Shown here one piece after another: positions 1-62,794 of a stretch of 64,000 nucleotides of DNA (position 1 is the first letter of the stretch; each line of letters opens with the position of its first letter). Source of the stretch: a virus (Duplodnaviria > Caudoviricetes); IMG/VR virus record IMGVR_UViG_3300030330_000562, positions 1 to 64,000 of that record. The stretch is one strand, 5' to 3'. The notes below the pieces were generated by a model, which was not told the origin of the DNA, made no database searches, and saw nothing but the letters and a program-made list of their open reading frames with translations. Made by a program: the position numbers and the translations under genes.

Positions 1-70
1 AACTGGAACAGCCCCTCAGCCAGGAGAACAGGGCTTCTCAGGTAATACTGGTCAACAACAGATACAATGA
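1..70 (+). CDS. Portal protein, C-terminal fragment (5'-truncated by window)
   Basis: Identical to the last 70 nt of the portal ORF 55251-57347; TGA at 68-70 overlaps the next ATG. Confidence 0.9.
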   Translation, partial: TGTAPQPGEQGFSGNTGQQQIQ

Positions 71-77
71 AACTAGT
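1..77 (+). repeat. 77-nt exact direct repeat, copy 1 (copy 2 at 57278-57354)
   Basis: Base-by-base identity for exactly 77 nt, first mismatch at 78 (a) versus 57355 (c). Confidence 0.95.
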
Positions 78-273
78 AGTGAATAATACTTTAAAACCTT
101 TCGTAAACAATCCAGAGTTGTATAATCCGTTTCTGGAAGAGATAGTTAACAGAATAGATAAAGTTCATAAACGTCTTGAGCAAATCAGTGAAGTAGAAGA
201 ACTGTATCGTGCTCAGGGCGAAATACGTGTGCTTAGAGCGATGTTAAGACTTCGGGAAGATATTAATGGCTAA
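67..273 (+). CDS. Small conserved protein downstream of portal (68 aa)
   Basis: ATGA overlap with portal; homolog at 57344-57550 is 59/68 aa identical. Confidence 0.85.
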   Translation: MKLVVNNTLKPFVNNPELYNPFLEEIVNRIDKVHKRLEQISEVEELYRAQGEIRVLRAMLRLREDING

Positions 274-3200
274 TATAGAAAAACAAATGGAGATGTTTGG
301 CTATACTGCCGAAGAAGCAAAACAAGAAGCTGATAGACTTGCAGCTGATGTAAACACAGATTTAACTTTTAAAGAGGCTGCAACAACTGTAGGTAGTATG
401 TTACCAGGTGTAGGCACTGCCATGACTGTTGCAGAAATAGAAGATGAACTAAAACAAGAAAATCCTAATTATGGTAAGATAGCTTTACTTGGTGGAGCAG
501 AGATAGTTGGTCTTGTTCCTGGACTTGGCACTGCAGCAAAGTCTGGATTAAGAGCTGCAGCAAAAAGACTAGGTGTAGACAAATTAATAAAAGCCATAGA
601 CGCACCTAAACCAGAAGAAGCTGTTAAACTTGAGGCAGGATTTACTGGAACTAATCCACCTACATATGAACCAAGAGTAGATGTAAAACCAAAACTAACT
701 GCAGATGAAATTTTTTTTAGAAAACCAATCATGCAATTTGTTAGATCTTTAGATGTACCTGAAAAAGGTATACTAGGTTCTAATTTTTCAAAACTTGTAG
801 AAAAAAATCCTTCAATCTCACCTACCTCTTTGCAAAAACAATTAATAAATCCTAAAAAAAGATATTCTAAAAAAGAGCTAGAAGATATATTTAAGTCAAA
901 TGAATTTTCTACTGCAGCTATGCCAAAAAAATCGCCATATAAATCTTATCGACAAAATCAAAGACAGCATCAAGTTGGATTTAGGGGTGGATCAGAACAA
1001 GAGTATTTTGAAATACCAATAAAATCTTTTACATCAGATGCTAACATAGCATTCAAGTCAAAAGCTTTTCGTAAACTTCAGAAAGAAAGAAAAAAAGGTA
1101 AACCTGAATTACTTGAATTTAAACCAAAAAAAGATACACATTTTGGAGAACGTTCTATAGCACATCTTAGGGGTTCTATTATAAATCCTCGTTATCATCG
1201 AAATATAGAATCTATTGTAGATTTAACATCTACTCACCCAGAATTTGATAAGATAATAAAAAATGAAAATTTTTTACTTGTTGAAGAACTGCAAAGTAAC
1301 CTTGTTTCAGGTGGATTTTTAGAATCAAAACCTCCATTTACAGAGTATGGTCCACCGCCTATTACTAAAAATAAACAAGCTGTAGAAGAATTAATTAAAG
1401 TTGCTATAGGTAAAGCAGCGAATGAGAATGTAAATTATATTGTTTTTCCAAACGTAACTAGAATAAAACTTGCAAGGGAAAAAATATTTAATCCAAATGA
1501 CAAAGGGGATTTATTCTATCAAACCTATTTTAAACAGGTGAATTCAGCTCTTTCAGATTTAGAAAAAAATTATCCTGTTAAAATATACAATAATGTTAAT
1601 CTACCGTATGACGATAATGCATTTATGCAAACAATAGCATCTACTGGACCAGATATACCCAATACCTACTTAGAAACAATACGACTTGGTAAGAGCTATC
1701 GTACACCAGATGAAATAAATGAAATTATAGATTCAAGCGGTACAGTGTTAGATATAAGCGAACTAGTAAAAAAATTTAAAGTAGAAGAACCGAGACAATT
1801 TGCCGAAGGAGGCACAGTAATGGAGCCAGAACCAAAACCAGAAACCAGACCTTTTCCTGATGTTAAACCACAGGAAAAACCTGAACGTCAAGCTGGAGTA
1901 TACAAAGAAGAATATGACTTTGAAGGAATGCCAGTAGAAATTCCTGTTATTATATTTAAAGATGGGGAAAAAATTGCTTTTGAAAAAGCTCTTCAAACAA
2001 TATCTGAGAGAGGCACTGCAAACGAACCTATTGTAGGCACAGATACTGAAGATCAGGTAAAAGAATTTATTAAAGAGAGAAATCCTACAAGAGAAGAGTT
2101 TGAAACCTATTGGTACAATAAAAGACTAAACAAGGGTGGATCAGTGGAAGATCAAATGGAAATGGCTTTTATGGATGAGGGTGGCCTAACAGATGATGGT
2201 ATGGATAAAGATCCAGTATCAGGTAATGAAGTGCCTTCAGGTTCTATGGCAGAAGAAGTACGAGACGATATACCTGCACAGTTATCTGAGGGTGAATATG
2301 TAGTTCCTGCTGACGTTGTAAGATATTATGGTGTAAAGTTCTTTGAAGATCTACGAGATCAAGCTAAGATGGGTCTAGCTCAAATGGAAGCTGATGGTCG
2401 TATAGGTGGTGAGCCAGTTCCTGATGGTGGCCCTGTAAATCAAGACGACTTGTCTCCACAGGAAATGCAAGCTATACGAGAGGTAATGGGTATGGCTGAA
2501 GGTGGTGATGTACAGAATCCTTATATGCAACAGCAGTTACTGTACAGTCAGCCAAGACCTGCTCCTATAGACGATCAAAAAGATACGATTGTGGATATTA
2601 CTAATCCTGTACAAAACCAGATGCCAGTTCAAAATATGGCTGCAGGTGGTCAGATACAAGGATATCAAACTGGTGGACTTGAGCAAGATTTTCTTAACAC
2701 AGGTCAATCAGCAGTAAACAGAGGCTTTGTGGGATTTCCATTAGGTGCTACAATCTTTCCATCTGAAAAAACTGGTCAAACAGTATTGGGACCAGCTGGA
2801 ACTCAAGTGGCTACAACTGGTGCTATTAACACAGCAGCAACTCAATCTCCAACTTTTACTACCGTAACTCTTTACGGACCTAACGGTGAGATAGTTGTTT
2901 TAACTCTACCAACAGACATAGATCGTTATAATAAACTACTTGCTGAAGGTTACACAACTACAATGCCTGGCACTGCTACAACCACCACTGATACTACCAC
3001 TGATACTACTACTGATACTACTACTGATACAAAAGCTGTAAAAGGTGGTAAAGATGATCCCATAAAAGAAACAATAGGATCAGATCCAAGTAGTTGGATG
3101 GACAAGTTTGATTATAAAGATCTTAATAATTTAGTTGATCAAACAAAGAACTCACTTACAAAATCTCCTATGTTTGGTGCAGACTCTGCACTAGGGGCAT

Positions 3201-3913
3201 TTATGAACGGAACAACAGCAGCACAAGCTGCAGCTAATATTATTATATTAAAGGCTAACGGAGGCGATCCAGATTTTCCAGGGTCTAGACCTGAACTAGT
3301 TTCTGCAGTGCAAGACTTAGAACAACGTTGGAAGCAATATGTTGATAATGATATCCTACTAAAAAATATGCCTGAACAATTTATCAACGGTGATAAACTA
3401 GCAAAAGAAATTGTAGAAAATAACATAGACGTAGCTTTATTTAAAGAATCTAAAGATGTATTTGGTAAAAATATATTTGCAGAAGGCACAGATGAATTTG
3501 AACAATTTGTTAAAAAGGTTGGACCTAAAGGTAGAGGTTCAGAGGGTGCAGCGGAAGCTTTTGCAAGAGTTAGAGAAAGAACAAAAGCAGCAGGTGTAAC
3601 ACCAACAGGAGCACCTCCACCGAGACCTGAAACAGTTTATGATCCTGCAACTGATAAAACAATTGTAAAATCAGGAACTCCAAAAGCTCCACCAGTAAAA
3701 ACTCAAGCACAGAAAGATGCAGATGCTAAAGCTGCTGTGGATGACTGGGTAAAAGCAACTCAAGCTACAAAAGGTAAAAAAGGAATTGCTAGACATAAAG
3801 CAATAAAAGCTCAATCAGAAGCAAGTAAAAGAGCTACAAAAGCTATCAGAGAAAAAACAGGATACAGAGGTTTTACAAGATCAAAAGGTGGACTAATGTC
3901 CAAGGGCAAATAA
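266..3913 (+). CDS. Large modular (polyvalent-type) protein between portal and scaffold, allele A (1215 aa)
   Basis: Long ORF; conserved core DDIPAQLSEGEYVVPADVVRYYG shared with 57543-61847; repeated xxGG motifs; N-terminal LPGVG/VPGLG helical motif; AHLR...LLVEELQS domain. Confidence 0.85.
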   Translation: MANIEKQMEMFGYTAEEAKQEADRLAADVNTDLTFKEAATTVGSMLPGVGTAMTVAEIEDELKQENPNYGKIALLGGAEIVGLVPGLGTAAKSGLRAAAKRLGVDKLIKAIDAPKPEEAVKLEAGFTGTNPPTYEPRVDVKPKLTADEIFFRKPIMQFVRSLDVPEKGILGSNFSKLVEKNPSISPTSLQKQLINPKKRYSKKELEDIFKSNEFSTAAMPKKSPYKSYRQNQRQHQVGFRGGSEQEYFEIPIKSFTSDANIAFKSKAFRKLQKERKKGKPELLEFKPKKDTHFGERSIAHLRGSIINPRYHRNIESIVDLTSTHPEFDKIIKNENFLLVEELQSNLVSGGFLESKPPFTEYGPPPITKNKQAVEELIKVAIGKAANENVNYIVFPNVTRIKLAREKIFNPNDKGDLFYQTYFKQVNSALSDLEKNYPVKIYNNVNLPYDDNAFMQTIASTGPDIPNTYLETIRLGKSYRTPDEINEIIDSSGTVLDISELVKKFKVEEPRQFAEGGTVMEPEPKPETRPFPDVKPQEKPERQAGVYKEEYDFEGMPVEIPVIIFKDGEKIAFEKALQTISERGTANEPIVGTDTEDQVKEFIKERNPTREEFETYWYNKRLNKGGSVEDQMEMAFMDEGGLTDDGMDKDPVSGNEVPSGSMAEEVRDDIPAQLSEGEYVVPADVVRYYGVKFFEDLRDQAKMGLAQMEADGRIGGEPVPDGGPVNQDDLSPQEMQAIREVMGMAEGGDVQNPYMQQQLLYSQPRPAPIDDQKDTIVDITNPVQNQMPVQNMAAGGQIQGYQTGGLEQDFLNTGQSAVNRGFVGFPLGATIFPSEKTGQTVLGPAGTQVATTGAINTAATQSPTFTTVTLYGPNGEIVVLTLPTDIDRYNKLLAEGYTTTMPGTATTTTDTTTDTTTDTTTDTKAVKGGKDDPIKETIGSDPSSWMDKFDYKDLNNLVDQTKNSLTKSPMFGADSALGAFMNGTTAAQAAANIIILKANGGDPDFPGSRPELVSAVQDLEQRWKQYVDNDILLKNMPEQFINGDKLAKEIVENNIDVALFKESKDVFGKNIFAEGTDEFEQFVKKVGPKGRGSEGAAEAFARVRERTKAAGVTPTGAPPPRPETVYDPATDKTIVKSGTPKAPPVKTQAQKDADAKAAVDDWVKATQATKGKKGIARHKAIKAQSEASKRATKAIREKTGYRGFTRSKGGLMSKGK
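2984..3031 (+). repeat. 4 x 12-bp coding tandem repeat (Thr-Thr-Asp-Thr linker)
   Basis: accactgatact x2, actactgatact, actactgataca; encodes TTDT repeats. Confidence 0.9.
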
Positions 3914-3963: not shown

Positions 3964-4869
3964 ATGCCTGAACTAACAGCAGTAGAAAAACCAAAAACAG
4001 CAGGGTTTGTTGATAGAGGTTACAACTACGAGAAAAAGCGTAAGCGAATGGAAGCCGAAGAAGAGGAGATTCGTAAACTTGAAGCTGAAGCACGTGGAGA
4101 AACAACAACCAACGAAGAACAGCAACCAGAAGAAGAAGCTCCCGAAGAAAAAAAGGCCGATACAGAAGTTAAAGAAGAAACGCTATCTGCTGAAGAAAAA
4201 TCGTTTAAGAAACGCTATGGTGATTTAAGACGCCATATGCAAGAAAAAGAAAAGGAGTGGGACGAGAAGTTTCAAGCCTTTGAAGAACGATTAAAGAAAG
4301 AGGCTATTGTTCCACCTAAGTCTGATGAAGATATAGAAGAGTGGTCTAAAGAGTATCCAGATGTGGCAGGTATTGTAGAAACTATTGCTGCAAAGATAGC
4401 TCAAAAGAAGTTTGATGAAGCTAATCAAGAACTAAAAGACTTGAAGAAAGTACAATCAGAAGCTCAAAGAGCTAAAGCAGAAAGTACAATACGTAAATCA
4501 CATGAGGACTTTGATGATCTACGTGCATCAGATGAGTTTCATAACTGGGTTGATGAACAACCTAAGTGGGTGCAAGATGCACTGTATGAGAACTCAGATG
4601 ATCCAGCTTCTGTAGTTCGTGTTATAGATCTTTATAAAGTAGATAAAGGTCTCACAAAAACTGCAAAGAAAGCAAAAGCAAAAGATGCAGCTTCTACTGT
4701 AACTAAACGTAGTAAAACAGAGATAGATGTAGAAGATGCAAATGACGTAATTCGTGAGTCAGAGGTTGCTAAAATGTCCGACAAGGAGTTTGAAGCAAAT
4801 TCTGATGATATTAACAAAGCTATCCGTTCGGGTAAGTTTGTTTACGATATATCTGGTAAAGCCAGATAA
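3964..4869 (+). CDS. Capsid scaffolding protein
   Basis: Acidic/charged coiled-coil protein directly upstream of major capsid; homolog at 61895-62794. Confidence 0.8.
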   Translation: MPELTAVEKPKTAGFVDRGYNYEKKRKRMEAEEEEIRKLEAEARGETTTNEEQQPEEEAPEEKKADTEVKEETLSAEEKSFKKRYGDLRRHMQEKEKEWDEKFQAFEERLKKEAIVPPKSDEDIEEWSKEYPDVAGIVETIAAKIAQKKFDEANQELKDLKKVQSEAQRAKAESTIRKSHEDFDDLRASDEFHNWVDEQPKWVQDALYENSDDPASVVRVIDLYKVDKGLTKTAKKAKAKDAASTVTKRSKTEIDVEDANDVIRESEVAKMSDKEFEANSDDINKAIRSGKFVYDISGKAR

Positions 4870-55250: not shown

Positions 55251-57347
55251 ATGGCAGAAGAAAATTTTGAAGAAATGATTATGGACATGGAACAAACAGT
55301 GTCTATAGAAGACGTTGTAGAAGAAGATTATTCAGATCCACTTACAGGTCATATTGTACAGTTTGTTAAAGATAGGTATAGTAAAGCTGATACAGCTAGA
55401 CAAATGGATGAAGAACGTTGGATTCAAGCTTATAGAAACTATCGTGGATTATATGGACCTGATGTACAATTTACATCTACAGAAAAATCTCGTATCTTTG
55501 TAAAAGTAACTAAAACAAAAGTTCTTGCAGCTTATGGTCAAATAGCAGAAGTACTATTTGGTGGTAATAGGTTTCCAATCAGTGTTGACCCAACAATTTT
55601 ACCAGAAAACGTAGAAGATACTGTTAGTTTTGAAACTAACCCTGAATTAAAGAAAGCAATTGATTCAAATATGGGTGAGTTACTTCCAGGAGAAACTATG
55701 CCAGAATTTAAAGAGCGTCTGGGTGCTTTGTCTGGTACATTAGAGCCTATTATTGATGATGTAAAACCTGGTGCAGGTAAAACTCCAACTGCAGCTCAAC
55801 TGCATCCTGCTGAAGTTGCAGCTAAGAAAATGGAAAAGAAGATACATGATCAATTAGAAGAATCTCATGCAAAAAAACATTTACGTGCTGCTGCTTTTGA
55901 GTCAGCACTTTTTGGTACAGGGGTTATGAAAGGCCCATTTGCTATAGATAAAGAATATCCAAATTGGGATGAAGAAGGTAATTACTCTCCTACATTTAAA
56001 ACAATTCCTCAAACTTCATCTGTGTCTATTTGGAATTTTTACCCAGATCCAGATGCTGCTACTATGGAAGAGGCAGAGTATGTTGTAGAAAGACACAAGA
56101 TGTCACGTTCTCAAGTACGTGGTTTAAAAAATCGTCCATACTTTAGAGAAAATGCAGTAGATAATGCCCTAAAACTTGGTGAAAGTTATCGTAAACAGTG
56201 GTGGGAACACATCATGGAAGATAACTCAGAAGAAGATAGAGCTGATCGTTTTGAAGTTCTAGAGTTTTGGGGTTTTGTAGATAAAGAGATGATAAAAGAT
56301 CAGGGAGTAGATATCCCTAAAGATTTAGAAGATGCAGATCAACTAAGTGTAAATATCTGGATTTGTAATGGACAAGTATTAAGACTTGTAATGAATCCAT
56401 TTACTCCAGCTTATATACCTTATTTTGTAGCTCCTTATGAGATGAATCCATATAGTATTTTTGGTATTGGTATTGCCGAAAATATGGACGATACTCAAAC
56501 ACTTATGAATGGCTTTATGCGAATGGCGGTAGATAACGCAGCATTGTCTGGTAATCTACTAATTGAGGTAGACGAGACTAATCTCGTCCCAGGGCAAGAC
56601 CTCTCCGTGTATCCAGGAAAAGTGTTTAGGAGACAGGGAGGGGCACCTGGTCAAGCTATCTTTGGAACTAAGTTCCCCAACGTATCTAACGAGAACATGC
56701 AGATGTTCGATAAAGCAAGGGTATTAGCTGATGAATCAACTGGTTTTCCATCTTTCGCACATGGTCAGACAGGCGTTAGTGGAGTGGGTCGTACTGCTTC
56801 TGGTATTTCTATGCTTATGTCTGCTGCCAACGGCAGTATACGCAATGTAGTTAAAAACATAGATGACTATCTACTAGCACCACTAGGTAAAGCCTTTTTT
56901 GGTTTTAATATGCAGTTTGACTTTGATAAAGAAATTAAAGGTGACTTGGAGATAAAAGCTCGTGGTACAGAAAGTCTTATGGCTAATGAAGTGCGTAGCC
57001 AACGCCTTATGCAATTTATGCAAGTGGTATCAAACCCTGCACTCGCTCCATTCGCACGTATGGACTATATTGTACGTGAAATTGCTAAGTCAATGGATCT
57101 TGATCCAGATAAAGTTGGAAACAATATGGCGGAAGCTGCGATTCAAGCTGAGATTTTAAAAGAGTTTAGAGAAACTAATCCACCTCCTGCACCACCTCCA
57201 GGAGTAAATGCTCCTCAGAACGCACCTGCTGGCGCACAAGTGCAGGATACTCAAGGTAGTGGGGGTGGTACTATAGGAACTGGAACAGCCCCTCAGCCAG
57301 GAGAACAGGGCTTCTCAGGTAATACTGGTCAACAACAGATACAATGA
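55251..57347 (+). CDS. Portal protein
   Basis: 698 aa after TerL; YRNYRG, KTKVLAAYGQ, GTGVMKGP, WNFYPDP, GIGIAENM. Confidence 0.9.
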   Translation: MAEENFEEMIMDMEQTVSIEDVVEEDYSDPLTGHIVQFVKDRYSKADTARQMDEERWIQAYRNYRGLYGPDVQFTSTEKSRIFVKVTKTKVLAAYGQIAEVLFGGNRFPISVDPTILPENVEDTVSFETNPELKKAIDSNMGELLPGETMPEFKERLGALSGTLEPIIDDVKPGAGKTPTAAQLHPAEVAAKKMEKKIHDQLEESHAKKHLRAAAFESALFGTGVMKGPFAIDKEYPNWDEEGNYSPTFKTIPQTSSVSIWNFYPDPDAATMEEAEYVVERHKMSRSQVRGLKNRPYFRENAVDNALKLGESYRKQWWEHIMEDNSEEDRADRFEVLEFWGFVDKEMIKDQGVDIPKDLEDADQLSVNIWICNGQVLRLVMNPFTPAYIPYFVAPYEMNPYSIFGIGIAENMDDTQTLMNGFMRMAVDNAALSGNLLIEVDETNLVPGQDLSVYPGKVFRRQGGAPGQAIFGTKFPNVSNENMQMFDKARVLADESTGFPSFAHGQTGVSGVGRTASGISMLMSAANGSIRNVVKNIDDYLLAPLGKAFFGFNMQFDFDKEIKGDLEIKARGTESLMANEVRSQRLMQFMQVVSNPALAPFARMDYIVREIAKSMDLDPDKVGNNMAEAAIQAEILKEFRETNPPPAPPPGVNAPQNAPAGAQVQDTQGSGGGTIGTGTAPQPGEQGFSGNTGQQQIQ

Positions 57348-57550
57348 AACTAGTCGTGAACAATACTTTAAAACCTTTCGTAAATAATCCAGAGTTGTAT
57401 AATCCATTTCTGGAAGAGATAGTTATTAGAATAGATAAAGTTCATAAACGTCTTGAGCAGCTTAACGATATAGAAGAAGTATATCGTGCTCAAGGTGAGA
57501 TACGTATGCTCAGATCAATGTTAAGACTTAGGGATGATATTAATGGCTAA
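57344..57550 (+). CDS. Small conserved protein downstream of portal, allele B
   Basis: Homolog of 67-273. Confidence 0.85.
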   Translation: MKLVVNNTLKPFVNNPELYNPFLEEIVIRIDKVHKRLEQLNDIEEVYRAQGEIRMLRSMLRLRDDING

Positions 57551-60500
57551 TACAGCAGAACAGATGCATGAAATAGAGCATTTTAATCAAAATACAGATT
57601 CACCTAAAAACATTCAAGAACAGATGGGAGTACTTGGTTATACTCCAGAAACAACAGATAAAAATTCATCTCGTATTCTGCCTCCCAATATTAGCTACCC
57701 TGCTCCTTTTCTTTCAAAAGATTCATCTAACATTAAAGGTTTAACTTACGGAGAACTTATTGTTGATAATATACTATTTTTAGATAATAATTATGAAAGT
57801 AGTATAGAAGGTATTTATAATAAATTTAGTGAAGATAAAAAAGGTTTTTTAAAAGCACTGGGTCAAAGTATTTATGACTCAGCCAAAAAATTTATGTATG
57901 AACCCTCAAAAATACCAGGAACTGATACATATATTCCTGCAGAATTATCAAGAGGACAAAAAGTTGGAGAGTTTGTTTTTGATTCTTTAAAAGATATAAA
58001 AGATGCAGTTGTAAGACTTTCTTCAGAAGATCTTGATGCTAGATTACAAAATATGTTTAATGTTAATTCTAAAGATGCAACTAACGAACAAGTATCTCAA
58101 GCTAGAGAGTCTGTTATCGTGGATACACTTGCTGCACTTGAACTTATACCTGCACTTGGGCCTACTGCAAAAGTTACAAAAGAAACAATATCTGGTGCTG
58201 TAAAGCTTGCAGATAGAGTTACAGTAAATCCAAGTGCATTAGGCACTATTGGGGGAAATTTTGCGTTAAGAACTCCTGGAGAAACTGGTAATTTTAAAAG
58301 AGCTATAGATTTTTTTAAGAAAAAAGGTGGTACTGATCCTAATAATTTTAAAGATATAAATAGAAAAATGTACAATAAATTTGGTTGGTACATTAATCCT
58401 TCTGATGGACAATGGCGTTATCAAATATCAGATAAGAATTCTAAATTAGACCTTAAAAATTTTAAAGTACAAATTAGAAATTTAGGTCTCAATGAAACTA
58501 AAACTTTAAAACTATCTGATATTTTAACACATGATCAATTATTTAAAAGATACCCTCATCTAAAAAATATTAATGTTCAATTTGAAAATAGATTTAAAAA
58601 CCCAATTACTGATGGCTTACCATCTTTAGGATCTTTTTCTGGGGGTGATAATCTAATAAAAATAAATGTAAATAAAGATAGAGGAGTTGACGTATCTAAT
58701 CTAGGAAATAGTGCAAGTTTTAAAGCTACTTTATTTCATGAAATACAACATGCAATACAAGAGTATGAAGGTTTTATTCCAGGCACAAGTACTATAAATA
58801 TACCTATTGAAGTAACAAAAAAACATTCAACTATGTTAGCTAATAATCTTGATTTTAATAGAAATCAAAGAAAAAAAATAATTGAAGAAATTGAGGGTTC
58901 TGCTTTAGAACACAAAATTAATACTGATACTTTATTAGCACATTTTTTACAAGATAGGTATCTTAAAACAGGGGTAGTGTTATTTACAAGTGAAGACGAA
59001 GTAATAAAAAAGTTTGCTGATGCTGTAGAAAAAGTAGGTTTACCTCCTAATATATTTGATGTTCCACCAGGATCTAGTAAAGCGTTTTTAGATTTAAGTG
59101 ATGATTTAAATAGATTAAGAAATAGTTTTTTAGATGATGTAAAAACAAAAAAAGCAATAGGGTATATTGAAGATTTACTTTATAGAGGATCAGGTGGAGA
59201 GCTAGAAAGCACTGGAGTAGAGGTAGAACTTGATAGTGCTCAAAATAAATTACGTTATCCTTTAGATGTAGAACAAGATATAATTAAGGCAAGAAAACTT
59301 GAAGATTTTGCAGGTAGTTTAGATGAAACAGCACAACAAGCTCTAATTCCAGAAGATCCTGGCTATTATAGAAGACAAACTTATAGAAAAGCTAATCCAG
59401 GCGTAGTTGATGTAAAAGTTGATATTGATTTGACTAAATATAAATATCATAAACTAGATCAAATTCCACCTGCAAAAGATTTAAATGATCCAGAATATTT
59501 AGCTTATCAAAAATTATCAAAAGAAAGTAGTGCTGTAAAACGTAGAGATGCACGTACTAAATTTCTTTTAGATAATATTATTAAAGATAACTCTCAGTTA
59601 AAAAAAGTAAAAAACCTTAAAAATGGAGATACTTTTTCTTATACACTTCCAAATGGAAAAACTGTAAAAGTAAAATTTGATAAGGTAAAAACACAAAAAA
59701 TTAAACGTAGTGATTTAAGTGAAACAGATGATACACTTATTATTAAAGATACTAGACCTAATAAATATAAAGAGGAAATGAGTGATTTTATCATACCATA
59801 TGCACGTCTTGAAATTATTGATAGTGATGCACCAGACTTAGAAATTACAATACCTAATCTTATAAAAAATAGTGATCTAGTTAAAGACGGTAAAAATTTT
59901 AACCTATTAGATTTAGGGGATACTAGACCCGAAGAAGGTGCTTTTAGTAAAATAAAAAGTTTATTTGGATTTGCCGAAGGAGGCGACACAGTGAAACCAG
60001 AACCAAAACCAGAAACCAGACCTTTTCCTGATGTTAAACCACAGGCAAAACCTGACTCGGATGAATACAGAGGTCGTACTTATGATATATACTCTGTAGA
60101 AATTGATGGAATAGAAACAAATGTTATTGAGTTTAAAGACGGTAAAAAAATATCTGCACCTCAAATACGGCAAATGTTTGAAGAATATAAAAGTGCTTCA
60201 GAATCAATTCCAGGAAAACAAACTTCACAAGAAATATCAAAATTTCTTGAGGATAATAATCCTACGTATGATGAGTTTATCAGACACTTTACTGCTAAAA
60301 GAATAAATAAAGGTGGACTGATAGGAGATCAAATGGAAATGGCTTTTATGAACGAAGGTGGCCTAACAGATGACGGTATGGATGTAGATCCAGTATCAGG
60401 TAATGATATACCTTCAGGTTCTATGGCAGAAGAGGTACGAGATGATATACCTGCACAGTTGTCCGATGGTGAATATGTAGTTCCTGCTGATGTCGTAAGA

Positions 60501-61847
60501 TACTACGGTGTCAAGTTCTTTGAAGATCTTAGAGATCAAGCTAAAATGGGTTTAGCTCAAATGGAGGCCGATGGTCGTATAGGTGGTGAGCCTGTACCTG
60601 CAGGTGGTCCAATAAATACTGAAGAGCTATCTCCAGAAGAGATGCAAGCTATACAAGAAATGATGGGTATGTCTGAGGGTGGTTCTGTAAATGCTTTGAA
60701 AACACAACAAGAGCTTCTTGAACAACCAGCTAATAAAGCTGTAGGTAATCCACAAATGATGTATGGTGGTGGTCAAGTTAGAGGCTATCAAAACTCAAGT
60801 CTTGTTGCACAAGCAGAGTCTAATTTATTAGGTGGACAATCTCTATCTCAGGTTGAACAACAGATGCTATCTGCAGCAGGAAATAAACCTTATACAGGGC
60901 AACCTTTAGGTTTTTCCCTTTTTGGAGGTTCTAACACTGGTGTAAAACAAGATCAATCTCAAACTTCTGCTTTTACTCCTATATTTTTATATAATAAAGC
61001 TGGTCAAAATAAATATGTAAGTAGTGAAAAAGAAAAAGCAAAGGCAATAGCTGATGGTTATACTATGACACTAGAGCAGTACAATATTTATAGATCACAA
61101 TCTGGTGGTTCTGGTGGTAGTGGTGGTAGTAGTTCTACAGTAACAACAGGTGATGAAGATAAAGAAATAAAATCTTGGGGTCAAGCTGTAAATTGGAATA
61201 ATGTAGATGATATTAAACAATTTGTAGCTCAGGCTGAAAGAGGTAATCTATCTGGTTCTGGTAGATTTTTAAGAGGTGCAGGTTTTGCAATTGCTGGATT
61301 ACCAGGTGCAATGTTAGCAGGAGCATTTCAAATTGGTAAGGGTTTAAATAGTATATACGATATGGAAGCTGCAAAAATTATTGCAGAGGCAAAAGGACAT
61401 ACCGAGTTAGCTACTGAAATACAAGAGGGTATAGATACTTACTTAAAAACTGCAGGTGATATTGCAAACTTTTTATATAAACCTGAAAGTAAAGCTGTTA
61501 TGAGAAGAGTTGATGGGGTGTTTGCAGGAACTGGTTATGAAGATGTTAACTCATGGGCAGCAGGTACTAGAAGAACAATAGTTTCAGATTATAAAAAAGG
61601 CAAAGAATTTGATAGTAAAAAATCTAAACAAGCAGGAGATAAAAGAAAAAGAAAAGCTATGAAAGCTTTTAATAAATTACAGAAAAATAAAGATAGTTAT
61701 ATAGCAAGCTCATCTACTCCAGGTGAAACAGCAGATAATATATCTCAATTAGAAAAATCACTTTCAGCATCAGCACAAAATCCTTCTGGTACAATAAGTT
61801 TAAACAAAGGTGGATTGATGCAAAAAAAGAAAAAGGCAAAGAAATAA
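57543..61847 (+). CDS. Large modular (polyvalent-type) protein, allele B, with zincin-like metallopeptidase (HEIQH) region (track start 57534)
   Basis: GWY...DGQWRYQISD, LSDIL.H..LF..YP.L, LFHEIQHAIQEYEGF; shares the SEGEYVVPADVV-type core with allele A. Confidence 0.85.
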   Translation: MANTAEQMHEIEHFNQNTDSPKNIQEQMGVLGYTPETTDKNSSRILPPNISYPAPFLSKDSSNIKGLTYGELIVDNILFLDNNYESSIEGIYNKFSEDKKGFLKALGQSIYDSAKKFMYEPSKIPGTDTYIPAELSRGQKVGEFVFDSLKDIKDAVVRLSSEDLDARLQNMFNVNSKDATNEQVSQARESVIVDTLAALELIPALGPTAKVTKETISGAVKLADRVTVNPSALGTIGGNFALRTPGETGNFKRAIDFFKKKGGTDPNNFKDINRKMYNKFGWYINPSDGQWRYQISDKNSKLDLKNFKVQIRNLGLNETKTLKLSDILTHDQLFKRYPHLKNINVQFENRFKNPITDGLPSLGSFSGGDNLIKINVNKDRGVDVSNLGNSASFKATLFHEIQHAIQEYEGFIPGTSTINIPIEVTKKHSTMLANNLDFNRNQRKKIIEEIEGSALEHKINTDTLLAHFLQDRYLKTGVVLFTSEDEVIKKFADAVEKVGLPPNIFDVPPGSSKAFLDLSDDLNRLRNSFLDDVKTKKAIGYIEDLLYRGSGGELESTGVEVELDSAQNKLRYPLDVEQDIIKARKLEDFAGSLDETAQQALIPEDPGYYRRQTYRKANPGVVDVKVDIDLTKYKYHKLDQIPPAKDLNDPEYLAYQKLSKESSAVKRRDARTKFLLDNIIKDNSQLKKVKNLKNGDTFSYTLPNGKTVKVKFDKVKTQKIKRSDLSETDDTLIIKDTRPNKYKEEMSDFIIPYARLEIIDSDAPDLEITIPNLIKNSDLVKDGKNFNLLDLGDTRPEEGAFSKIKSLFGFAEGGDTVKPEPKPETRPFPDVKPQAKPDSDEYRGRTYDIYSVEIDGIETNVIEFKDGKKISAPQIRQMFEEYKSASESIPGKQTSQEISKFLEDNNPTYDEFIRHFTAKRINKGGLIGDQMEMAFMNEGGLTDDGMDVDPVSGNDIPSGSMAEEVRDDIPAQLSDGEYVVPADVVRYYGVKFFEDLRDQAKMGLAQMEADGRIGGEPVPAGGPINTEELSPEEMQAIQEMMGMSEGGSVNALKTQQELLEQPANKAVGNPQMMYGGGQVRGYQNSSLVAQAESNLLGGQSLSQVEQQMLSAAGNKPYTGQPLGFSLFGGSNTGVKQDQSQTSAFTPIFLYNKAGQNKYVSSEKEKAKAIADGYTMTLEQYNIYRSQSGGSGGSGGSSSTVTTGDEDKEIKSWGQAVNWNNVDDIKQFVAQAERGNLSGSGRFLRGAGFAIAGLPGAMLAGAFQIGKGLNSIYDMEAAKIIAEAKGHTELATEIQEGIDTYLKTAGDIANFLYKPESKAVMRRVDGVFAGTGYEDVNSWAAGTRRTIVSDYKKGKEFDSKKSKQAGDKRKRKAMKAFNKLQKNKDSYIASSSTPGETADNISQLEKSLSASAQNPSGTISLNKGGLMQKKKKAKK

Positions 61848-61894: not shown

Positions 61895-62794
61895 ATGCCT
61901 GAATTAGCAGAAGTAGAAACACCAAAAACAGCAGGGTTTGTTGATAGAGGTTACAACTACGAAAAGAAGCGTAAGCAAATGGAAACGGAAGAAGAGGAGA
62001 TTCGTAAACTTGAAGCTGAACAACGTGGAGAAACAGACGAAGAACAGCAACCAGAAAAAGAAACTTCCAAAAAGAAAGAGACCGATACAGAAGCTAAAGA
62101 AGAAACGCTATCTGCTGAAGAAAAATCGTTTAAAAAGCGTTATGGCGATCTAAGACGCCATATGCAAGAAAAAGAAAAGGAATGGGAAGATAAGTTTAAA
62201 GCCTTTGAGAAACGATTAGAAAAAGAATCTATTGTACCACCTAAGTCTGATGAAGATATAGAAGAGTGGTCTAAAGAATATCCAGACGTAGCAGGTATAG
62301 TAGAAACTATTGCTGCTAAAAAAGCTCAAGAGATGTTTAATAAAGCTGAAGCTCGTATGCAAGAGTTTGATAAAATTCAAACAGAAGCTGAAAGAACTAA
62401 GGCTGAAAGTATCATACGTAAATCACACGAAGACTTTGATGATCTACGTGCATCTGATGAATTTCATAACTGGGTTGAAGAACAACCTAAATGGGTACAA
62501 GATGCACTGTACGAAAACTCAGATGATCCAGCCTCTGTAGTTCGTGTTATAGATCTATATAAAGTAGATAAAGGTCTAACTAAGAGTGCAAAGAAAGCAA
62601 AAGCTAAAGATGCAGCCTCTACAGTCACAAAACGTAGTAAAACACAAGTAGATGTAGAAGATGCAAATGACGTAATTCGTGAGTCAGAAGTTGCTAAAAT
62701 GTCCGATAAGGAATTTGAAGAAAAGTCTGACGATATTAACAAAGCTATCCGTTCGGGTAAATTTGTTTACGATGTATCTGGCAAAGCTAGATAA
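61895..62794 (+). CDS. Capsid scaffolding protein, allele B
   Basis: Homolog of 3964-4869. Confidence 0.8.
   Translation: MPELAEVETPKTAGFVDRGYNYEKKRKQMETEEEEIRKLEAEQRGETDEEQQPEKETSKKKETDTEAKEETLSAEEKSFKKRYGDLRRHMQEKEKEWEDKFKAFEKRLEKESIVPPKSDEDIEEWSKEYPDVAGIVETIAAKKAQEMFNKAEARMQEFDKIQTEAERTKAESIIRKSHEDFDDLRASDEFHNWVEEQPKWVQDALYENSDDPASVVRVIDLYKVDKGLTKSAKKAKAKDAASTVTKRSKTQVDVEDANDVIRESEVAKMSDKEFEEKSDDINKAIRSGKFVYDVSGKAR

Follow-up and report, generated by a model that had tools for sequence, protein, structure and literature searches.

A constant carrier and exchangeable N-terminal cassettes in the post-portal protein of HMO-2011-type phages, a candidate virion-delivered polyvalent protein

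We analyzed the first 64 kb (the window) of the 86,433-bp viral contig IMGVR_UViG_3300030330_000562 from IMG/VR. The subject of this report is a large gene located between the portal gene and a putative scaffold gene, referred to here as the post-portal gene, which is present in the window in two versions, A and B. Judged from its sequence, the contig arose when the assembly unrolled a de Bruijn bubble formed by two related HMO-2011-type podoviruses that occur together. A and B are therefore orthologous genes of two phage genotypes and do not belong to one genome. In both versions, N-terminal cassettes stand in front of a constant carrier. With moderate confidence, we propose that the post-portal gene of HMO-2011-type phages encodes a modular polyvalent protein, whose cassettes on the constant carrier would be packaged in the virion and ejected into the host.

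HMO-2011-type phages reportedly rank with the most abundant and most widely distributed groups of viruses in the ocean (PMC9038755), and HMO-2011 itself, a Puniceispirillum phage, was placed among the podoviruses through its tubular tail B protein (PMC4819975). A tblastn search of a phage collection with the conserved middle of the protein returned only HMO-2011, eleven CRP phages (Roseobacter phages) and one uncultured Caudoviricetes record. The phages of the window are assigned to the HMO-2011-like type.

Constant carrier and variable N-terminal cassettes

BLASTP comparison of A with B gave one real alignment, between amino acids (aa) 505-900 of A and 806-1180 of B (49% identity, E = 6e-106). 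The N-terminal 500 residues of A and 800 residues of B shared nothing in this search. The first-pass annotation, made from the sequence alone, had described the N-terminal halves as unrelated and AT-rich, and both statements are borne out. The G+C content (GC) is 0.322 in the cargo of A (0.129 at third codon positions, GC3) and 0.289 in the cargo of B (GC3 0.093), compared with a contig mean of 0.378 (standard deviation 0.029, in 1.5-kb windows). The windows of lowest GC in the contig lie in the cargo of B.

Behind the cargo, the alignments resolve a constant carrier that consists of a pre-core, a core of about 140 aa with a near-invariant block of about 70 aa, and a divergent C-terminal region with an NKGGLM tail. 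The block, DPVSGNEVP..EVRDDIPAQLSEGEYVVPADVVRYYGVKFFEDLR..GRIGGEPVP, is more conserved than the portal of the same phages. The core is lineage-specific and has no Pfam family. The C-terminal thirds of A and B were unrelated by BLASTP and proved homologous after jackhmmer iteration, and the family consensus ends in NKGGLMxKxKKKK. The C-terminal ~100 residues are rich in lysine and alanine (3600-3910 in A and 61500-61844 in B). This lysine-rich tail, which may bind DNA within the capsid, yielded spurious PDB matches to other lysine-rich tails.

An island of 49 nucleotides, which encodes PEPKPETRPFPDVKPQ, is perfectly identical at 1826-1874 and 59997-60045; the DNA flanking it is unrelated or weakly similar between A and B. 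Within six mismatches, the island was found in only 5 of 80 related loci, and it is likely to be a recent recombination joint. The presence of this island at the joint of cargo and core, together with the low GC of the cassettes, indicates that the cassettes, of which none to several precede the carrier, are exchanged between close phages by recombination.

The extent of this exchange was apparent among the relatives. In IMG/VR, the core was found at no fewer than 584 loci. In a survey of 79 loci with cores 74-93% identical, the region before the core motif varied from 3 to 1425 aa and the region after it from 317 to 481 aa. Phages with portals 89-92% identical to that of the window have post-portal proteins of 670 to 1850 aa. 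When 47 unique full-length proteins were mapped with profiles, six named N-terminal modules (lead, a2, a3, b1, the zincin unit and b3) could be distinguished and, beyond these, at least 17 clusters of residual modules. The set contains more than 20 cassette types, most of them without a known family; the zincin unit is present in 11 of the proteins. Minimal natural forms (480-550 aa) have no cassette and, like HMO-2011 gp49, begin directly with the core. In two loci, L051 and L022, the zincin unit and the GNAT-like unit of version A follow one another in series. These units are therefore cassettes and not mutually exclusive, in contrast to the two alleles that had been suggested at first. The other part of that suggestion, an exchangeable N-terminal payload, is the most economical reading of the N-terminal lengths in the 79 loci.

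Some of the cassettes are recognizable as enzymes of the cell wall. CRP-2 gp58 (L007:5542-7485) carries a Cell Wall Hydrolase domain (PF07486, E = 1.3e-11, aa 33-138) before its core, and P0058, a homolog of A, carries a CHAP/NlpC-P60 domain. Wall-hydrolase domains are typical of virion-borne entry proteins. CRP-2 gp58 is annotated only as hypothetical. The morphogenesis module of HMO-2011-type phages is said to have very few insertions and deletions (PMC8528129), and the variability of this gene is not mentioned in the genomic papers on these phages that we read.

The borders of the units share a short motif. The pattern [FLMI][AND][EK]GG occurs four times in A and five times in B, against 0.2-0.3 expected, and none of 2000 shuffles reached the observed numbers. 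These xEGG/xKGG motifs are located at the border of cargo and pre-core, at that of pre-core and core and at the end of the core, and the motif also closes the family consensus (NKGGLM followed by lysines). In relatives, it directly precedes internal lead modules. The sequence that follows the junction, (D/E)QMxMAF, resembles the N-terminus of the protein itself. The [FLMI][AND][EK]GG motif could be a trace of the head-to-tail fusion of units or the mark of a cleavage site. The junctions as a whole fit recombination joints, proteolytic sites or both.

The cargoes of versions A and B

The motifs that the first-pass annotation had quoted are all present in the proteins (LPGVG/VPGLG, HF..AHLR and LLVEELQS in A, GWY..DGQWRY.ISD and LFHEIQHAIQ in B). 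For A, the functions attached to them were not supported. The LPGVG..VPGLG segment had been compared with pre-toxin TG motifs, but aa 1-510 of A are without any Pfam family at E<=5. The segment is common to most relatives, which indicates a linker-like part of the shared architecture and not a cargo specific to A. The lead module to which it belongs sometimes takes an internal position in these relatives, and B has a related stretch (..PALGPTAK..). The highest Kyte-Doolittle window of the lead module is 1.59, at aa 72-90.

According to its predicted structure, the remainder of the cargo of A is a single cassette, whose GNAT-fold (acyl-CoA acyltransferase-like) domain is highly divergent and contains inserts. 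An AlphaFold model of aa 122-520 (pLDDT, the predicted local distance difference test score, 73; pTM, the predicted template modeling score, 0.81) was aligned to 48,161 solved chains with VIA-align. The best 50 matches were all GNAT-fold proteins, and the matches included the toxins AtaT and TacT, phage Mu Mom, Nat enzymes and p300. In a Foldseek search, the top rows were the acetyltransferases Rtt109 and p300 (E ~1e-2). The model has the core arrangement beta4-alpha3-beta5-alpha4-beta6 of the GNAT fold. A nuclease-like domain had been suggested for this region; the model matched only GNAT-fold acyltransferases, and a nuclease fold was rejected since no nuclease was among the fold matches. The loop equivalent to the GNAT Q/RxxGxG/A motif, before alpha3, reads PPITKNK, so that the canonical pyrophosphate-binding motif is missing. 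A GNAT signature was likewise absent at the sequence level, as neither the cargo of A nor 10 distant family members had a Pfam match at E<=5. The search of the cargo of A against PDB sequences gave nothing meaningful, and ESM Atlas returned for the module only viral clusters without names, with scores below 0.9.

The two parts of this module, a2 and a3, were never found apart or in another order, as would be expected of a single fold interrupted by an insert. Its invariant residues are QRQ232-234, H292, H300, R302, E341, Q343, S344, P364-365, Y421 and Y436. In a profile search of 1.84 billion representative proteins, the module was found in 201 clusters, almost all of them long proteins. Among the newly returned representatives, 82 of 137 also hold the HMO-2011-type core, and many of the others stop at the end of the module and look truncated. 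The module is thus all but confined to this protein family. A locus search with the module alone gave only two close loci.

Version B carries an LPD23 domain with an HExxH zincin metallopeptidase unit, as predicted from its sequence and that of its homologs, and in addition b1 and b3, two modules of unassigned function. The pairing of LPD23 with a zincin had been proposed from the motifs, and it holds at the family level. The Pfam LPD23 profile itself scored 16.3 bits on the whole protein (E = 0.0085) and 18.5 bits on aa 241-480 (E = 0.0017), below its cut-off of 27; matches to Peptidase_M91 and DUF6782 were also below threshold. A search with aa 240-620 of B returned 34 long proteins, nearly all bearing PF18838 (LPD23), and homologs at 31-75% identity carry this domain. 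LPD23 was also matched in the N-terminal regions of seven relatives (best E = 9.9e-10), and the block GW(Y).DP.DGQWR(Y/F).I.D could be aligned between B and the LPD23 homologs. In P0015, P0020 and P0031, LPD23 is followed within ~45-90 residues by a SprT-like or DUF6782 metallopeptidase match, which falls on the HEIQH column of B. The distant homologs are classical polyvalent proteins with ART-PolyVal, LPD3, LPD39, HD, M78, SprT-like or GNAT domains.

The putative active site is well conserved. H402, E403, H406, Q409 and E412 are unchanged across 25 sequences, which gives the HExxH motif and a downstream glutamate ligand, and the signature HExQHAIQxxEGF is invariant among the homologs. D300, H333, Y340, P341 and Q405 are also invariant in the family. 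In the AlphaFold model of aa 240-620 (pLDDT 84), HExxH lies on a helix (155-172 of the model) after a small sheet and is followed by long helical hairpins. Against BFVD, this model gave 15 matches at E<=1e-3, mostly proteins labeled 'large polyvalent protein associated domain' (best E = 5e-9). The cargo of B had no meaningful match among PDB sequences. Rather than an effector, this zincin may be a peptidase that processes its own protein.

Proposed role, known systems and competing explanations

The position of the gene, the wall-hydrolase cassettes and the framework published for polyvalent proteins (PMC5512222) point to packaging, ejection and action of the cassettes in the host. In the scheme that we propose, the invariant core would be the encapsidation anchor and would bind the portal, the scaffold or the capsid interior, with a few copies of the protein packed in each head. 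At infection, the protein would exit by way of the portal and tail together with its N-terminal modules, which might then act in the envelope or the cytoplasm by peptidoglycan hydrolysis, by acylation of a host or nucleic-acid target, or by proteolysis. The zincin would most likely cut the polyprotein itself or host proteins, and the xEGG/xKGG motifs would be candidate cleavage or recombination joints. A more specific version of this scheme is possible and rather doubtful. In this version, the protein would be a capsid-delivery carrier of a non-MuF type that has so far escaped recognition, on which cassettes bounded by xEGG/xKGG are lined up head to tail until proteolysis after ejection frees them. 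One common cassette would be a new p300/Rtt109-like acyltransferase with inserts, injected to acylate a host or phage nucleic-acid target at the outset of infection.

The closest precedent is the class of phage polyvalent proteins described by Iyer, Burroughs, Anand, de Souza & Aravind 2017 (PMC5512222), which are multidomain proteins whose genes lie next to those of portal and terminase and for which packaging is predicted. The protein described here shares with them its large size and multidomain organization, its place beside the portal and terminase genes, a zincin HExxH unit as a hub, the accretion and shuffling of enzymatic cassettes including GNATs and peptidoglycan hydrolases, and the predicted packaging and delivery with DNA. 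Several unrelated domains are found in B, in the relatives with zincin and GNAT-like units and in those with wall hydrolases, whereas A alone has one recognizable enzymatic fold. Unlike polyvalent proteins in general, the cassettes here are mounted on a lineage-specific and nearly invariant core, minimal forms without a cassette exist, and the junctions are marked by xEGG/xKGG. Two RimI-like GNAT families have been described among polyvalent proteins (PMC5512222); the GNAT-like cassette of A, which matched no Pfam family, GNAT models included, may be different.

MuF toxins and MuF head proteins (SPP1 gp7, Mu gp30) also resemble this protein in having a post-portal gene, a constant and an exchangeable enzymatic part, and proposed packaging in the head and delivery. 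The first-pass annotation had noted that the gene occupies the position of MuF polymorphic toxins. The post-portal position was correct, but the MuF domain (PF04233) had no Pfam match on the whole A and B proteins or on their parts, the polarity is reversed with the variable part at the N-terminus, and no immunity gene follows. N4 gp50 and crAss-like cargo proteins are, as proposed here, giant head-packaged proteins ejected into the host, and the N4 virion RNA polymerase contains a zincin region required for encapsidation (PMC5512222). A crAss 'RNAP associated protein fused to zincin protease' appeared as a weak BFVD row for the B model (E = 0.23). However, no RNA polymerase module and no significant link in sequence or fold to N4 gp50 was found here, and in contrast to N4 gp50 and crAss cargo the cassette content varies between near-identical phages. 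T7 gp16, with its N-terminal transglycosylase, is comparable with CRP-2 gp58 and P0058 in that an enzymatic head is placed at the N-terminus of a long protein. Versions A and B differ from it in that they have no recognizable wall hydrolase and in that the gene is in the head block and not in a T7-like internal-core block. Finally, the module of A is unlike AtaT/TacT, Mu Mom and p300/Rtt109 in its absence of sequence similarity, its large inserts and its missing canonical pyrophosphate-binding motif. On the basis of these comparisons, the unit of B belongs to the LPD23/zincin class, and the whole protein resembles a cargo carrier of the polyvalent or MuF type but is not MuF.

The same observations can be read in other ways. 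The protein might be virion-borne and ejected as a component of entry or of an ejectosome rather than as an anti-host carrier, with the carrier located in the DNA conduit and the modules serving envelope penetration and self-processing. This would agree with the cell-wall hydrolase cassettes of CRP-2 gp58 and P0058, the Gly-rich and weakly hydrophobic lead module, the long helical hairpins of the B model, and the autoprocessing proposed as the main role of polyvalent-protein zincins (PMC5512222). We nevertheless regard it as unlikely because envelope penetration alone hardly accounts for the GNAT-fold domain and the many unassigned cassettes, and because the minimal natural forms lack every cassette, so that the cassettes are dispensable for entry. 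It is even less probable that the protein is a morphogenetic factor that acts in the producer cell only, for instance a chaperone of head assembly, a scaffold inside the head or the carrier of a maturation protease, with an N-terminus that varies through relaxed constraint or assembly contacts. The gene does lie among head-assembly genes, in the place that the gene of a prohead protease or scaffold takes in many phages; the zincin could serve as maturation protease, and the GG-type junction motifs could be sites of maturation cleavage. However, the zincin is confined to a minority of the close relatives and so cannot be a protease on which maturation depends. Cassettes with cell-wall hydrolases also make little sense in the cytoplasm of the producer, and the B unit has its homologs in polyvalent proteins that belong to phages and mobile elements (ART-PolyVal, LPD3/LPD39, HD, GNAT).

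Two further explanations are far weaker. The PHROG family phrog_3547, labeled 'tail length tape measure protein', matched 19 of 29 core and C-terminal sequences (best E = 8.7e-8), and the protein could accordingly be taken for a tail protein of the tape-measure type. This is very improbable since HMO-2011-type phages are podoviruses, which are without a tape measure, the match spans a small part of the 1767-position profile, and the gene is in the head block and not in the tail block. The match probably reflects members of this very protein family that were labeled automatically, and the label is probably a mis-annotation for head-block proteins of podoviruses. The difference between A and B might also be an artefact of assembly that produced chimeric open reading frames (ORFs), as the contig can be shown to result from the unrolling of a bubble between two genotypes. 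We give this hardly any credence, because each version recurs on independent contigs and neither ORF can then be an assembly chimera. The N-terminal region of A is 91% identical on contig L008. For B, an identical protein (P0003) exists in a public collection, and relatives of its aa 240-620 are 90% identical on a 49-kb contig and 75% identical on a 57.6-kb contig. Both ORFs are moreover uninterrupted and have normal neighbors on both sides.

Several results count against our proposal of a packaged and ejected cassette carrier. The core and C-terminus showed no link to any solved structure in the PDB, and no sequence or profile link of the core to MuF or known ejection proteins was detected. 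The PDB sequence matches of this region and of the cargoes of A and B were TPR repeats and Lys/Glu-rich low-complexity sequences. ESM Atlas gave for the core and C-terminus, too, only nameless viral clusters below 0.9. For the B model, PDB searches (Foldseek, VIA wide and VIA second look) returned only look-alikes of the helical hairpin 193-306; this hairpin dominated the fold searches, and the zincin lobe was therefore not matched to a solved peptidase. A profile-to-PDB search with the B unit found only the WLM protease 5jig (E = 0.46). The GNAT-like unit always adjoins the core and may thus be a semi-constant accessory rather than free cargo. In the papers on HMO-2011-type phages that we could read, we found neither virion proteomics nor a structure for this protein.

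The LPD23/zincin unit of B is an already known theme of polyvalent proteins. New here are a carrier core specific to the lineage, an extreme turnover of cassettes in a dominant phage group of the ocean, the private GNAT-fold family and the junction motif, none of which is mentioned in the genomic papers on these phages that we read. If the protein is packaged and injected, the locus would represent a natural library of first-strike effectors that phages use in marine bacteria. Virion cargo would also gain a new type of carrier domain, and the GNAT fold a divergent family that is confined to these proteins. Cultured relatives exist in CRP-2, CRP-9 and HMO-2011.

Contig structure and gene neighborhood

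The positions of the features discussed are collected in Table 1.

Table 1. Features of the post-portal locus in the two genotypes, with positions in the window
Feature	Position	Strand	Source or remark
68-aa ORF, copy A	67..273	+	between portal and post-portal gene
Version A post-portal polyvalent protein, 1215 aa	266..3913	+	ORF list, BLASTP
A aa 1-125, QMEMFGY leader and Gly-rich helical lead module (LPGVG..VPGLG)	266..640	+	BLASTP and jackhmmer maps
A aa 122-504, GNAT-fold-like module (a2 + a3)	629..1777	+	
A cargo/core junction, FAEGG (aa 512-516) followed by the 49-nucleotide island	1799..1874	+	exact-match scan
[FLMI][AND][EK]GG sites in A	1799-1816, 2126-2140, 2171-2185, 2492-2506		
A core, aa 629-765	2150..2560	+	family alignments; tblastn to HMO-2011 and CRP phages
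A aa 901-1215, divergent C-terminal region, Lys-rich tail ending ..KGGLM...	2966..3910	+	
phrog_13678 gene, putative scaffold	3964..4869	+	phrog_13678 1.9e-52; downstream of version A
Portal gene, 698 aa	55251..57347	+	Pfam SU10_portal 3.4e-27; phrog_332, phrog_1216; directly upstream of version B
Last 67 nucleotides of portal gene, also present	start of window		own-genome search
68-aa ORF, copy B	57344-57550		between portal and version B
Version B post-portal polyvalent protein, 1437 aa from 57534	57534..61847	+	ORF list
B aa 1-240, module b1, C-terminal part resembling the lead module	57534..58253	+	BLASTP/jackhmmer maps
B aa 240-480, LPD23 (aa 279-305) and zincin-type metallopeptidase	58251..58973	+	
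B HEIQH, aa 402-406	58737-58751		
B aa 480-805, helical continuation of the zincin unit and module b3	58971..59948	+	common to L048, L060, L028, L075
[FLMI][AND][EK]GG sites in B	59970-59984, 60303-60317, 60348-60362, 60669-60683, 61800-61814		
B core, aa 932-1067	60327..60734	+	counterpart of 2150-2560
phrog_13678 gene, version-B copy	61895-62794		downstream of version B

Exact-match scanning showed that bases 1-77 are a copy of 57278-57354. At the other end, contig positions 28881-29033 are an exact copy of 86281-86433, the last 153 bases of the contig, which lie beyond the window. Between these repeats, 78-28880 is colinear with 57355-86280, with 69-91% identity where the two can be aligned and no alignment elsewhere. 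As deduced from these repeats, the bubble contains two alternative structural arms of the related phages and one replication arm that they share. The contig corresponds to ~1.5 genome lengths, and the completeness and length estimates of the record are misleading because the contig is an unrolled bubble.

The gene order by Pfam and PHROG is TerL, SU10-like portal, the 68-aa ORF, the post-portal gene, the phrog_13678 gene and the major capsid protein, in agreement with the position between portal and scaffold that was first described. The absence of a downstream immunity ORF was also noted correctly, since the next gene is the conserved phrog_13678 gene and the ORF lists of both copies show no additional ORF between the post-portal gene and this scaffold candidate. 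The two phrog_13678 copies are 84% identical in nucleotides and syntenic in isolates; the gene is a conserved neighbor and not an immunity gene. Version B has two in-frame ATG codons, at 57534 and 57543. The latter is the likelier start because it gives a protein beginning with MANTAEQ.. and the same 8-nucleotide overlap with the 68-aa ORF as in version A. The two copies of this small ORF are 90% identical in nucleotides and have no family match in Pfam or PHROG. An equivalent small ORF is also present in HMO-2011, CRP-9 and CRP-2, and its product may assist the post-portal protein as partner or chaperone.

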